Translations under genes and position numbers: made by a program | Shown: positions 7,341-62,297 of the stretch, in pieces | How positions within the stretch are numbered: position 1 is the stretch's first letter | Layout of the letters: every line of letters begins with the position of its first letter | From: Candidatus Parcubacteria bacterium | Lineage (GTDB): Bacteria; Patescibacteriota; Minisyncoccia; UBA6257; 2-01-FULL-56-20 | Direction: 5' to 3' | DNA: 63,098 nucleotides | Assembly: GCA_041169145.1 (NCBI GenBank) | Contig: JBEEJO010000001.1 | Location: 1 to 63,098 of the forward strand | Notes under the pieces: model-generated | What the model was told of the DNA's origin: nothing | What the model saw: the letters and a program-made list of their open reading frames with translations, nothing else | The model's database searches: none

Positions 7341-8858
7341 TTACATGCCTTTCAGGATATCTATCCTCGCGCCAAGCTTGTTCAACCGGTTCACGAGATC
7401 TTCATATCCGCGATTGATGGAATACACGTTCCGCAGAATGGACGTACCGCGCGCGGCAAGCATGCCGATCAACACGATAACTGCCGGGCGAAGCGCGGGC
7501 GGACAAACAACTTCCGCACCGCGAAGCTCCGTCGGGCCCTCGATATAGACACGATGCGGATCCGCAAGAATGATGTTCGCATTGAGCTTCGCGAGTTCCA
7601 TATAGTAGATGGCGCGGTTCTCGTAGACCCAATCGTGAATGAGCGTCGTTCCTTTCGCTTGCGTCGCAACGGGCACGAAGAACGGCAGATTGTCTATGTT
7701 CAGCCCGGGATACGGCTGAGCGTGAAGTTTCTCTTCAAGCGCAACGAGTTTGGACGGAAGGGTCTTGATATCAACAAGATTCGCCTCGCCGTTCCGGGCC
7801 TTATATCGGCGCAGGATCTTGTACCGGAATCCCATCTTCTCGAGCCTTAACAATTCCATCTCCAAGAAATCAATGGGGCATCGTTCAATGGTAAGCGATG
7901 AGCGAGTCGTCGCGGCAATGGAAAGGAAGAGCATCGCTTCGATGGGGTCCTCGCTCGGCTCGTATGCGACATCTGCGCGAATATCACGCTTGCCATGCAC
8001 GGTCATTGTGGTCGTTCCGATGCCATCCACGCGCACGCCGAGCTTCTCGAGGAACCGCGCAACATCTTGCACCTGATAGTTCGCTGAGGCGAATTTAATG
8101 ACGGTCTTGCCCGGCACGCGCGCGGCGGCCATGAGCGCATTTTCCGTCACCGTATCGCCGGCTTCGTACAGCACAATATCGGCAGGGCGAAGCTTTGCAG
8201 CGGTGATGTGATAGTTGCCTTTCGTCGCAGAGATCTTCACGCCAAGCTTTTCTAATGCGAACAGATGCGGACGCACCGTCCGTCGGCCAAGCCGACAGCC
8301 GCCAGGATACGGTATGGCAAATGCCTGCAGTTCATGGATAAGCGGACCCATAAGCATCAGGACGCTCCGCGTTTTTATCGCCGATGCGATGTTCAATCTA
8401 TCCATCCGAAGCGTTTTTGGAGGAACGATCTCCACGTCGCTTTGGCCCGACCAGCGAACCGTAACGCCGATGGATTGGAGCACTTCTATCACCCGGTTCA
8501 CTTCTTCGATTTTCGGCATATTGCGAAGCGTCGTCTTGCCGCGGTTCAAGAGCGATGCGCAAAGCAACCCAACCGCCGAATTTTTTGATGTGTTCACGCG
8601 AACCGTGCCGGAAAGCTTCCGCCCGCCCTCGATACGGAAGCTCATCGCGCCGGATGACAGCGTGATGATATTGCGCTTCAATACGCGGCCGATCTTTGCG
8701 AGCGTCTCGGTCGTGAAATTCTGCTCACCCTTTTCCATTCGCGCAACGGCACTTTGGCTCGTGTGCAAAGCCTTTGCTAACTCCTCTTGCGTCATTCCCG
8801 CATGTTCGCGAAGCGTTTCTATAAATCTGCCGATCTGTATTTGTTCTTCGGTTTTCAT
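7341..8858 (-). CDS. murA: XRE-type HTH domain fused to UDP-N-acetylglucosamine 1-carboxyvinyltransferase
   Basis: Residues about 10-65 (MTQEELAKALHTSQSAVARMEKGEQNFTTETLAKIGRVL) form an XRE HTH. The rest aligns with MurA, including the PGGCRLGRR catalytic Cys loop and the C-terminal INRGYEDLVNRLNKLGA. Confidence 0.85.
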   Translation of the reverse strand: MKTEEQIQIGRFIETLREHAGMTQEELAKALHTSQSAVARMEKGEQNFTTETLAKIGRVLKRNIITLSSGAMSFRIEGGRKLSGTVRVNTSKNSAVGLLCASLLNRGKTTLRNMPKIEEVNRVIEVLQSIGVTVRWSGQSDVEIVPPKTLRMDRLNIASAIKTRSVLMLMGPLIHELQAFAIPYPGGCRLGRRTVRPHLFALEKLGVKISATKGNYHITAAKLRPADIVLYEAGDTVTENALMAAARVPGKTVIKFASANYQVQDVARFLEKLGVRVDGIGTTTMTVHGKRDIRADVAYEPSEDPIEAMLFLSIAATTRSSLTIERCPIDFLEMELLRLEKMGFRYKILRRYKARNGEANLVDIKTLPSKLVALEEKLHAQPYPGLNIDNLPFFVPVATQAKGTTLIHDWVYENRAIYYMELAKLNANIILADPHRVYIEGPTELRGAEVVCPPALRPAVIVLIGMLAARGTSILRNVYSINRGYEDLVNRLNKLGARIDILKGM

Positions 8859-14235: not shown

Positions 14236-14319
14236 GCGCGGGTGGCGAAACTGGCAGACGCACTACCTTGAGGTGGTAGCGCCCGTAAGGGCTTGGAGGT
14301 TCAAATCCTCTCCCGCGCA
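14236..14319 (+). tRNA. tRNA-Leu (anticodon GAG), class II with long variable arm
   Basis: Acceptor gcgcggg/cccgcgc, anticodon arm ctacc-ttGAGgt-ggtag, T-arm ggaggttcaaatcctc, discriminator A, no encoded CCA. Confidence 0.9.
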
Positions 14320-14333
14320 CACAGAATCTTGCT

Positions 14334-15889: not shown

Positions 15890-16285
15890 TTATTTCTGGT
15901 CAGCGAACGCCGTTTTCTTCGCCAGCTGATTCTTAATCATATTTTCCAAATCGTCAATAGAGGTCCGGGCTTTTACGTAATAGTCCACCGCGCCAAGGCT
16001 TCGCGCTTTTTCCACGTCCGTTTCCTGTCCCAAGTTCGTAGCGACGATGATCGGGATGGAGGTCAGTTCCGGATCGGAAGCGATATGCTCCATCAGCTCG
16101 AAACCGGACATCTTCGGCATGATGATATCTAAAATGACCAAGTCGGGCTTGAAACTCCGCATCTTCTGTATGCCTTCGTCGCCGTCGAACGCCTGGTCAA
16201 CGACAAAGCCGTCGTGTTCCATCCGGCTTTTGATGATCGAGGACAAAAAGCGGTCATCTTCCACGATGAGTACTTTTGGTTGCAT
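15890..16285 (-). CDS. single-domain response regulator (CheY-like receiver)
   Basis: VLIVEDD, phospho-acceptor LVILDIIMP, and the ATNLG and K positions are conserved. Confidence 0.85.
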   Translation of the reverse strand: MQPKVLIVEDDRFLSSIIKSRMEHDGFVVDQAFDGDEGIQKMRSFKPDLVILDIIMPKMSGFELMEHIASDPELTSIPIIVATNLGQETDVEKARSLGAVDYYVKARTSIDDLENMIKNQLAKKTAFADQK

Positions 16286-16297
16286 GGCGTTCTATTT

Positions 16298-16696
16298 CTA
16301 TGATGCTTGATTTTCCTGGCCCGGCTTTTTTGACAATCGATTTTTTACGACATTCTCAAGGTCATCGATGGACGTCTTCGCTTTAATGTAATAATCCACC
16401 GCGCCCAAGCTTCTGGCCTTTTCTACGTCAGATTCCTGGCCAAGATTTGAAACGACCATAATGGGAATGCTGTTCAATTCGACATCGCTCACCACGCGTT
16501 CCAAAAACTCAAAACCCGACACTTTTGGCAGGATGATGTCCAAGATGACAAGATCGGGCCGCAAGCTTCGCATCTTCTGCACGCCTTCGTCGCCGTCGAA
16601 CGCCTGATCAACGACAAAACCGTCGTGTTCTAGGCGACTCTTGAGCATAGACGACACAAATCGATCATCCTCTACGAGTAATACTTTCGGCTGCAT
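16298..16696 (-). CDS. single-domain response regulator, tandem paralogue of 15890-16285
   Basis: Long identical runs with the neighbour (HDGFVVDQAFDGDEG, KARSLGAVDYY). Start set at ATG 16696 because the longer ORF runs into the 16S gene. Confidence 0.85.
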   Translation of the reverse strand: MQPKVLLVEDDRFVSSMLKSRLEHDGFVVDQAFDGDEGVQKMRSLRPDLVILDIILPKVSGFEFLERVVSDVELNSIPIMVVSNLGQESDVEKARSLGAVDYYIKAKTSIDDLENVVKNRLSKKPGQENQAS

Positions 16697-16705
16697 ACTG
16701 CACCC

Positions 16706-16733
16706 AGTATAACAGATAGAGCTGGTCTGGCAA
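16706..16733 (-). promoter_or_regulatory. promoter TTGCCA-16-TATACT, 9 nt before the response-regulator ATG
   Basis: Plus-strand tggcaa at 16728-16733 and agtata at 16706-16711. Confidence 0.55.
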
Positions 16734-16809
16734 AATCGTTCGACTTTGCTCAGGGTAAAGAGCTTTTTCGTTGTCCCAACCCATCTCGGCATTGCCGAAA
16801 TGTCGACGT

Positions 16810-18358
16810 AGTTTAATTGATCCACGCACAGCTTCCGCTACGCGTGCCTTGTTACGACTTAGCCCATGTCACCGAGCCAGAACTAATCCCACCGAAGCGA
16901 GACTTCATCCTTTCCCGGCTTCCTTGGCTTGACGGGCAGTGAGTACAGGACTCGAGAACGTATTCACCGCAACGTAGCTGATTTGCGATTACTAGCGATT
17001 CCGGCTTCATGGGGTCGAGTTGCAGACCCCAATCCGAACTGAGGCCAGGTTTTGTGGGGTTAGCTCCGGCTTACGCCTTGGCGACCCATTGTCCTGACCA
17101 TTGTAACACGAGTGTAGCCCAGGGCATCAGAGGGCCATGCGGATTTGACGTCATCCCCTCCTTCCTCCCCCGCCGAAATCCGCAACGATTGTTGTGAACT
17201 TTGGCGGGGGCAGTTTCGCGTGACACTTGTAACACGCGATAGGGGTTGCGTTCGTTCACCCAATTAAGGGGACGCCTCACGGCACGAACTGACGACAACC
17301 ATGCAGCACCTGTGCTTTCTGTCCTTGTGAGAGGTCTTCCCTTTCGGGAAGATTTCAAAAAGCATTTCAAGCCCTGGTAAGGTTCCTCGCTTATCGACGA
17401 ATTAAACCTCATGTTCCACCGCTTGTGCGAGTCCCCGTCTATTCCTTTGAGTTTTAAGCTTGCGCTCGTACTTCCCAGGCGGCCTGCTTAACGCGTTAGC
17501 TCCGGCACTCCGAGGGTCGATACTCGAAACACCAAGCAGGCATCGTTTAGGGCGTGGACTACAAGGGTATCTAATCCTTTTTGCTCCCCACGCTTTCGTG
17601 TCTCAGAGTCAGGAAGGTCCCAGTGCACTGCCTTCGCCTTTGGTGTTCCCCACGATATCAACGGATTTCACCCCTACACCGTGAGTTCCATGCACCTCTA
17701 ACCTCCTCTAGTCCTGCCGTATTCCACGCAGTTCCACCGTTAGGCGGTGGGATTTAACATGAAACGCACAGAACCTCCTACACACGCTTTACGCCCAATA
17801 AATCCGGATAACGCTTGAGGTCTACGTATTACCGCGGGTGCTGGCACGTAGTTACCAACCTCTTTCCGTGGAGCCCTCACTTGCGTTGGTACTCCACTAC
17901 CGCAGTTTACAACCCGAAGGCCTTCATCCTGCACGCGGCGTCGCTCGATCAGGCTTTCGCCCATTGTCGAATATTCTCGACTGCTGCCTCCCGTAGGAGT
18001 ACGGACCGTGTCTCAGTTCCGTCGTTGGGGATCAGGCTCTCACCCCCCCTACCGGTCATAGCCTTGGTAGGCCATTACCCTACCAACTAGCTGATCGGAC
18101 CTAGGCCGATCCCGAAGCGCATTGCTGCGTTTACCCTTCGATTGCTCTCAGGGACTATCGGGTATTACTCCGCCTTTCGGCGGACTATCTCCGTCTTCAG
18201 GGTACGTCACCAAGGTGTTACTAACTCGTTCGCCGCTACTCTATCCCATCCGTCGCTTTGATGTAATCGCAACTTCTTCAAAGATAGAATCGCTCGACTT
18301 GCATGCCTTATCCACGCCGCCAGCGTTCATCCTGGACCAGGATCAAATCCTCAGTAAA
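16810..18358 (-). rRNA. rrs: 16S ribosomal RNA (orphan, no 23S/5S or spacer tRNAs adjacent)
   Basis: Minus strand reads ...GGATTTGATCCTGGTCCAGGATGAACGCTGGCGG at the 5' end. It has GTGCCAGCACCCGCGGTAATAC, ATTAGATACCCTTGTAGTCC, and AAGTCGTAACAAGG...GGATCA at the 3' end. The exact 3' boundary is uncertain. Confidence 0.93.
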
Positions 18359-18730
18359 AATCGCGCATTTGTTCAACACGCGAGCTTAAGCGCTATCGAT
18401 AACGCTCAAACTCGCATGTCTCACGTGCGTGAGTCTTGCTGCGATTGAATGTCTGTTTTTTGTCTGTATCCCACCGTCTCCGAAACTCCTGCGGGACATG
18501 CCCGCGTGTGTTCCGGTTGCGATGCTGATACTCAGCAACCGCAAAAACACATCTCGCCGATGGCTGAACGTGTATTGCGACCACTGGTTATTGGGACAAC
18601 GAAAAAACTCTCTTTTTACCAGTTAATCTGATATCACCCCTCTTCGTCCGCCTTGCGGAAGAGCGGGGGCAAATTTTTCAAAACAACACAACCTGCGGCG
18701 ACCCTGAGGCCGCCATCGGATGCAGGGTCT

Positions 18731-18758
18731 ATTATAGGGATGGCCCGCGTTCTGTCAA
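18731..18758 (-). promoter_or_regulatory. consensus promoter TTGACA-16-TATAAT, about 370 nt upstream of mature 16S
   Basis: Plus-strand tgtcaa at 18753-18758 and attata at 18731-18736. Confidence 0.6.
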
Positions 18759-62207: not shown

Positions 62208-62213
62208 GGTGTG

Positions 62214-62297
62214 TGCGCAGGGAGGGATTCGAACCCCCGTAGGCCGTAGGCCGCCACGTTTACAGCGTGGTACAATTGACCGCTCTGTCACCTGCGC
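62214..62297 (-). tRNA. tRNA-Tyr (anticodon GUA), class II long variable arm
   Basis: Acceptor gcgcagg/cctgcgc, anticodon arm ccacg-ctGTAaa-cgtgg, T-arm gggggttcgaatccctc, discriminator A. Confidence 0.9.

Follow-up and report, generated by a model that had tools for sequence, protein, structure and literature searches.

Here, we present an analysis of the 16S rRNA gene (rrs) in a 63,098-nt stretch of DNA from Candidatus Parcubacteria bacterium (contig JBEEJO010000001.1; in the following, the window), with a focus on the 3' end of the encoded rRNA, where the anti-Shine-Dalgarno (anti-SD) sequence is expected. A first-pass annotation of this DNA had stated that the tail of the gene lacks the CCUCC of the anti-SD, that helix 45 and the adjoining GGATCA are intact with the divergence starting at the anti-SD, and that the strand carries no CCTCC across 16298-16816. 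Three features are central:

16810..18358, minus strand: 16S rRNA gene, complete, of the Patescibacteria/Paceibacteria type (Rfam RF00177, 1363.8 bits)
16818..16850, minus strand: helix 45 (GGCACGCGUAGCGGAAGCUGUGCGUGG, GGAA loop intact) and the conserved GGAUCA, with every helix-45 pair kept in the covariance-model alignment
16809..16817, minus strand: replacement 3' tail AUUAAACUA at the position where other bacteria have CCUCCUUA, with no anti-SD (sequence and covariance-model alignment)

The gene at 16810..18358 is a full-length, genuine bacterial small-subunit (SSU) rRNA gene; the hit spans model positions 1-1533 of 1533, and its score compares with a gathering score of 50. On the minus strand, the sequence reads ...AAGTCGTAACAAGGCACGCGTAGCGGAAGCTGTGCGTGGATCA (GGATCA at 16823..16818) and continues with ATTAAACTACGTCGACATTTCGG from 16817 downward. 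In the RF00177 alignment, helix 45 and GGAUCA are matched at posterior probability '*', and model positions CCUCCUUU (CCUCCUUUu) are aligned to AUUAAACU, i.e., the eight nt after GGAUCA. The canonical 3' tail GGAUCACCUCCUUU, which is not a defining feature of this Rfam family, was not found; rather, GGAUCA is kept and AUUAAACU follows. The list of all GGAGG sites contains no minus-strand CCTCC (plus-strand GGAGG) between 16298 and 16816. Moreover, GGATCACCTCC does not occur as an exact match anywhere in the window, and its matches with up to two mismatches are at chance level (23 versus 16.6 ± 4.0 in the window). Altogether, the tail naturally reads AAUUAAACUA where CCUCCUUA is expected, and the anti-SD is absent from this 16S rRNA. 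Hence, all three statements of the first-pass annotation hold, and the covariance-model alignment that it had proposed as a check returned a full-length match with AUUAAACU at the CCUCCUUUu positions. The mature 3' end would lie 9-10 nt after GGAUCA, at about the position of the mature end in Escherichia coli.

Relatives were sought by scanning one genome per species (GTDB representatives) with the 18-mer 16S signature TGTACTCACTGCCCGTCA, which gave at least 120 loci. Among the matches listed, to which all statements about these relatives refer, nearly all are metagenome-assembled genomes (MAGs) labeled Patescibacteria, Parcubacteria, Paceibacterota, Liptonbacteria, etc., and the signature is almost confined to Patescibacteria records. 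The 3' ends were extracted from 102 recovered 16S genes; the counts below are conditioned on the search signature and do not represent prevalences:

AAUUAAA-class tail after GGAUCA: 31 loci, window excluded
exactly GGATCAATTAAACT, as in the window: 17 of these 31 loci
GGAUUAAUUC... tail: 23 loci
AAUUAC... tail: 7 loci
other non-CCUCC tails: 21 loci
CCUCA tail: 9 loci
CCUCC tail: 11 loci

The identical tail GGAUCAAUUAAACU is present in at least 17 independent species genomes and in 6 metagenome contigs, with 16S identities to the window of 81-88%. The 17 loci with the exact tail include the closed chromosomes OY970354.1, OY970382.1, and OY970126.1, and their 16S genes are 82-88% identical overall. 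Within the AAUUAAA class (n = 32, window included), identity is at least 90% in the AATTAAA columns, at least 70% in the three that follow (CTA), and less than 50% beyond; this boundary falls 9-10 nt after GGAUCA. The 6 metagenome relatives, none of which is closer than 87% in 16S, came from a scan by architecture pattern; in all of them, the tail, GTCGA, stem arm, and promoter occur in the same order, and the response regulator gene described below is present in 5 of 6. We conclude that the lineage has inherited the loss of the anti-SD and that the copy in the window is not damaged. By comparison of the tails, that of the window could also be shown to be related to the AAUUC... and AAUUAC... 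tails of sister clades.

The predicted transcription unit around the gene comprises the following elements, all on the minus strand:

18731..18758, minus strand: sigma-70-type rrs promoter, near-consensus (TTGACA, 16-nt spacer, TATAAT; read from the sequence)
18591..18611, minus strand: 5' arm of the pre-16S processing stem, AGAGUUUUUUCGUUGUCCCAA (complement search and covariation)
16802..16807, minus strand: GUCGAC trailer motif; GUCGA recurs 2-45 nt past the tail in relatives
16783..16801, minus strand: small trailer hairpin AUUUCGGCAAUGCCGAGAU (read from the sequence); relatives have hairpins of other sequence there
16759..16779, minus strand: 3' arm of the pre-16S processing stem, UUGGGACAACGAAAAAGCUCU (complement search and covariation)

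The reverse complement of the 3' arm UUGGGACAACGAAAAAGCUCU lies at 18611..18591 with a single mismatch (a G.U pair), while no such match is expected by chance. The 5' arm is located 233 nt before the 16S gene and the 3' arm only ~30 nt past the tail, and the same two arms flank the 16S genes of relatives. Across nine distinct arm pairs, 99.5% of the cells of the 21-bp stem are paired, and four pairs show changes in both partners. Neither value was attained in 500 shuffles, and when the partner was shifted by one column, pairing fell to 52-60%. Because the arms were located by a loose regular expression that fixes their ends, evidence can come only from the unconstrained inner positions, and it is there that the compensatory changes fall. 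Folding of whole leaders with whole trailers (RNAduplex) gave over-fitted, uninformative structures and was discarded in favor of defining the stem from the conserved arms. The 21-bp leader/trailer stem around the 16S gene is probably the pre-rRNA processing stem. Accordingly arranged, rrs would form a unit of its own, with promoter, leader, 5' stem arm, 16S, short trailer, and 3' stem arm.

Based on the Rfam scan, the 63-kb window contains a single 16S gene and neither a 23S nor a 5S gene. Thus, rrs is unlinked, with no 23S gene, 5S gene, or spacer tRNA gene anywhere in the window. Downstream of rrs lie two genes for response regulators; these and the only two tRNA genes found in the window are as follows:

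16298..16696, minus strand: single-domain response regulator, syntenic partner of the 16S gene (tblastn homologues in relatives)
15890..16285, minus strand: second response regulator copy, in tandem (translation and tblastn)
16706..16733, minus strand: response-regulator promoter of leaderless geometry (TTGCCA, 16-nt spacer, TATACT, ending 9 nt before the ATG)
14236..14320, plus strand: tRNA-Leu(GAG)
62213..62297, minus strand: tRNA-Tyr(GTA)

Using tblastn, regulator homologues with 44-61% amino acid identity were found at no fewer than 35 genome loci on the same strand as the 16S gene; they start 100-840 nt downstream of the 16S tail, and 100-410 nt downstream in all but four. In the relatives, the orthologues have TAGAAT or TATAAT ending 6-9 nt before the ATG. 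The order of a 16S gene followed by a gene for a REC-only regulator of ~130 amino acids is, therefore, conserved in at least 35 Patescibacteria genomes (among others, loci L002, L036, L038, L050, L061, L074, L081, L091, L100, L109, L117, and L122-L127), and the copy in the window is duplicated in tandem. Judged from gene order, the unlinking of rrs from the 23S gene is ancestral to the clade.

These data bear on two rival explanations for the unusual tail, both of which the first-pass annotation had kept open. In an assembly chimera at ~16817, a 16S fragment would be joined to unrelated sequence just after GGATCA. A 30-mer across this junction has no exact match in metagenome contigs, and two proteins of the window, the response regulator and a phosphoenolpyruvate (PEP)-utilizing enzyme, have no exact record in the assembly index, so that an independent assembly of the same organism is not at hand. 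However, the tail, GTCGA, the 3' stem arm, and the regulator gene recur in this order in dozens of independent assemblies, closed chromosomes included, and the 3' arm at 16779..16759 pairs across the gene with the leader at 18611..18591, as is not expected of a chimera; we regard the probability of an assembly junction as practically nil. Alternatively, a rearrangement could have cut the rRNA operon exactly at the anti-SD and left a damaged or pseudogenized 16S gene, and the lack of an adjoining 23S gene, 5S gene, or spacer tRNA gene is what such an event would leave behind. Yet this unlinked arrangement with a downstream regulator gene is common to at least 35 related genomes, the gene has a near-consensus promoter of its own and a covarying stem that extends beyond the tail, the tail is under strong purifying selection, and the gene scores as full-length SSU rRNA. 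A broken operon is, consequently, extremely improbable.

With the anti-SD absent, the mRNAs of the window are expected to lack an SD signal. Genes were called using a simple open reading frame and codon-bias caller of our own, in which the start is the first ATG near the 5' end of the open reading frame; as controls, we took ATG triplets located 60 or more codons into these genes, and 49 kb of E. coli analyzed with the same code served as a positive control. SD-like 4-mers at −18 to −4 were present before 6/56 starts in the window (10.7%) and at 36/273 controls (13.2%; Fisher p = 0.76). The entire tail class gave 22/218 versus 118/932 (p = 0.88), compared with 40/59 (68%) versus 10/251 (4%) in E. 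coli (p = 2e-26). Thus, no SD-like enrichment was detected 4-13 nt before starts in the window, while the positive control detects it. Similarly, the sliding duplex energy against the canonical tail dips to −5.7 kcal/mol at −6 in E. coli but shows no trough in the 56 genes of the window or in 162 genes of relatives. GGAGG occurs 129 times in the window versus 110.6 ± 9.9 expected, an excess that is not significant; with a count near expectation, a handful of sites near starts is expected by chance.

By contrast with the SD motifs, promoter elements are enriched next to starts. We counted as a −10 hexamer any match of at least 5/6 to TATAAT that includes A2 and T6 and whose end lies 4-12 nt before the start. 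This hexamer precedes 13/56 starts in the window (23%) versus 2/273 controls (0.7%; Fisher p = 2e-9) and, in the tail class, 49/218 starts versus 27/932 controls (p = 1e-19). Hexamer positions form a sharp peak, with 3' ends at −7, −8, and −10 relative to the start. As partner elements, TTG is concentrated at spacers of 16-17 nt, and a TGn extended −10 accompanies 21 of the 49 hexamers (p = 4e-13). Because these −35 (TTG) and TGn partners are at the right spacing, the start-proximal signals are, as far as can be read from DNA, DNA-level promoter elements and not merely A/U-rich RNA. Start-proximal −10 boxes with such partners indicate that the predicted transcripts are leaderless mRNAs. Many of these promoters lie in 7-50 nt gaps between genes on the same strand, which suggests that the putative leaderless transcripts are made gene by gene. 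Among the genes with a start-proximal promoter (TTGAAC, 17 nt, TATGCT ending 6 nt before the ATG) is one at 7341..8858 (minus strand) that codes for 505 amino acids and an unusual fusion of an N-terminal Xre-type helix-turn-helix domain (PF01381) to a full EPSP-synthase/MurA-type domain (PF00275). The first-pass annotation had regarded the loss of the anti-SD as fitting leaderless promoters and as conflicting with several genes that carry GGAGG sites. While the enrichment, the positional peak, and the TTG/TGn partners lend statistical support to the former, the latter conflict disappears with GGAGG near expectation and starts no richer in SD-like motifs than internal ATGs. Of its three options, the first, that the organism has lost the anti-SD, is supported.

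We considered whether AAUUAAACUA could be an alternative anti-SD that pairs with a new upstream motif (e.g., UAGUUUAAUU or part of it). In favor of this idea, the tail does not vary although the 16S genes that carry it share only 82-88% identity, AT-rich k-mers (e.g., TAATT, TTAAT, and ATTAA) are enriched before starts compared with coding controls, and tail-complementary 5-mers form a small bump with their ends near −6. However, the energy profile for the new tail has no trough and does not outperform shuffled tails (56 genes in the window and 162 in relatives), the enriched AT-rich k-mers are accounted for by −10 boxes (TATAAT, TAGAAT, and TACAAT) with −35/TGn partners, and the bump is weak and confounded with the same boxes. 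Pairing of this kind is, therefore, very unlikely, and we reject it. We also rejected a pairing between the tail and the U-rich leader that directly precedes the 16S 5' end, because the same leader is present in relatives that keep CCUCC and there is no covariation. Likewise, the 5' end GAGGAUUUGAUCC (versus GAGAGUUUGAUCC in CCUCC-type relatives) was by inspection not SD-related but an ordinary compensatory change in helix 1 (GGA...UCC against GAG...CUC).

Altogether, we consider it very likely that the gene is an intact, lineage-typical 16S gene without an anti-SD in an organism with SD-independent starts, mostly from leaderless-type promoters. In this clade, the eight nt after GGAUCA are AUUAAACU rather than CCUCCUUA, and the ribosome would thus be without an anti-SD sequence. 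Many genes, even those only 7-50 nt from an upstream neighbor, have their own sigma-70-type promoter with a −10 box that ends ~6-9 nt before the AUG, and transcription would, therefore, begin at or beside the start codon. The resulting leaderless mRNAs would be bound via the 5'-terminal AUG and the initiator tRNA, without rRNA-mRNA pairing.

Several observations weigh against this model. Both the mature 16S 3' end and the transcription start sites are predictions from DNA. Leaderless geometry was found in only 23% of the called genes (~37% at a laxer threshold), and the caller puts some starts wrong, e.g., at 16792 instead of 16696 for the response regulator. In the wider clade, the GGAUUAAUUC... 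tail class, which also lacks CCUCC (here loci L023, L026, L049, L058, L065, L077, L087, and L090), has a positional peak of strong AAGGAGG-like sites 5-9 nt before the ATG, with 31 motif hits among 107 genes. In addition, a ~130-amino-acid orphan gene in three AAUUAAAC-type genomes (L002, 5811..6203; L036, 59..448, minus strand; L061, 3783..4187) keeps AGGAGG, AAGGAG, or GGAGG 7-9 nt before the ATG, and its promoter is followed by a ~21-nt leader that carries the SD-like site; the window contains no orthologue of this gene. These AAGGAGG-like sites do not fit a simple picture without any SD. Finally, 63 kb of the genome is in view, and a second rrs with a canonical tail may exist elsewhere.

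If such a second 16S gene had a normal CCUCC tail (GGAUCACCUCC), there would be two ribosome populations, and the copy in the window would be specialized. Besides the partial view of the genome, the strong SD-like sites that a few relatives retain before some genes would agree with this idea. On the other hand, CPR (Candidate Phyla Radiation) genomes usually carry a single rRNA copy, the window has a single 16S gene and no SD enrichment, and each related closed chromosome appears once among the matches listed, although a canonical copy could lack the signature. We find a second, canonical 16S gene very unlikely.

In Patescibacteria that keep the anti-SD, the trailer folds back on it (CCUCCUUUCUAGGGAG / CCUCAUUUAGAGGA). 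Among the anti-SD-keeping loci (CCTCC tail: L001, L006, L016, L044, L051, L056, L062, L101, and L106; CCTCA tail: L017, L024, L025, L028, L032, L043, L094, L105, and L111), SD-like motifs precede 6/48 starts versus 25/257 controls, and start-proximal −10 boxes 10/48 versus 6/257, in what are small samples. SD use may have faded before the anti-SD was lost.

Given that 23 other assemblies carry AAUUAAACUA unchanged despite a 12-19% divergence of their 16S genes from that of the window, and that it has about the canonical length, the tail is possibly functional. That it is a new functional element of the small subunit and not neutral filler is, nevertheless, a doubtful proposition that we put forward only as a speculation. 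Era, the recognizer of GAUCACCUCC, is absent from most CPR (PMC10582724; PMC12641178). If the proposition were true, the tail may bind a ribosomal protein or assembly factor that replaces the Era/anti-SD checkpoint lost in most CPR; instead, it may favor 70S-type initiation on 5'-terminal AUGs. In either case, the mRNA exit platform would be arranged in a third way, besides SD pairing and the sequestered anti-SD found in Bacteroidota.

With respect to affiliation, the best 16S matches are 82-88% identical (L108, L050, L038 [Candidatus Liptonbacteria], L036, L091, L002, L081, and L074), and the titles of the best-match MAGs read Candidatus Paceibacterota, Liptonbacteria, or Minisyncoccia. Judging by these identities, the window belongs to the Patescibacteria (CPR), in the Parcubacteria/Paceibacteria group near Liptonbacteria, and represents a lineage without a close sequenced relative in the GTDB-representative collection. 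In two metagenome contigs (L122, Ga0116137_1002645; L124, Ga0187882_1000096), the 16S gene aligns with that of the window only at positions 7-791, and the stretch just 5' of helix 45 is CATGAACAAGG, not AAGTCGTAACAAGG; this suggests a large insertion or a rearranged 3' domain in these putative 16S genes. The signature TGTACTCACTGCCCGTCA itself, at 16947..16930 (minus strand), corresponds to A1396U and C1400U (E. coli numbering by our own counting) near the decoding center, and GTGCCAGCACCCGCGGTAA at 17829..17847 (minus strand) carries C in place of G within the 515F primer site. The standard primers 515F and 1392R/1406 would mismatch the 16S of the window; with changes like these at "universal" sites, the organisms will go undetected in amplicon surveys.

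Bacteria rarely lose the anti-SD, and such a loss removes the textbook mechanism for selecting start sites, which makes such organisms natural test cases for SD-independent initiation. SD-reliant gene callers will misplace starts in their genomes. The clade can be recognized by simple markers, namely the conserved tail, trailer stem, and 16S-response regulator linkage.

Tsurumaki et al. (RNA 28:1041, 2022; PMC9297842) detected the anti-SD motif in only 48% of Parcubacteria. In their analysis, lineages in which the motif is missing overlap with those that lack uL1, and SD helices are thought not to form in them. The window shares with this subgroup both the CPR/Parcubacteria affiliation and a 16S 3' end without CCUCCU; however, that paper names no replacement sequence and no initiation mechanism, whereas we find AAUUAAACUA invariant in one clade and the loss tied to leaderless-type promoter geometry. 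Full-text searches of incomplete coverage returned no paper on the replacement tail or the leaderless mode in Patescibacteria, Parcubacteria, or CPR. The core loss is, thus, already published, and the window is a new, fairly divergent member of the anti-SD-lacking Parcubacteria; our analysis confirms this loss and adds the conserved replacement tail as well as a quantitative tie to leaderless promoters.

Among known systems, bacteria rich in leaderless mRNAs (e.g., Mycobacterium and Streptomyces; papers cited in PMC12641261) have a canonical anti-SD and continue to employ SD for leadered genes, whereas the clade of the window has no anti-SD and SD motifs at background. The likeness to them lies in a −10 box at a fixed short distance of ~6-9 nt before the start, with −35/TGn partners. 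The clade resembles Bacteroidota-type SD-independent initiation in having genes without SD motifs and with A/T-rich upstream regions. However, Bacteroidota retain the CCUCC tail, which is gone from the 16S of the window, and the upstream signal here is a promoter with −35/TGn partners, not mere A-richness. Mitochondrial SSU rRNA without an anti-SD, as mentioned in PMC10582724, likewise combines a preserved helix 45 and adjacent conserved sequence with the loss of the anti-SD and with (nearly) leaderless mRNAs; here, by contrast, the setting is a free bacterial genome with sigma-70 promoters, and a conserved tail of similar length, rather than a simple truncation, takes the place of the anti-SD.

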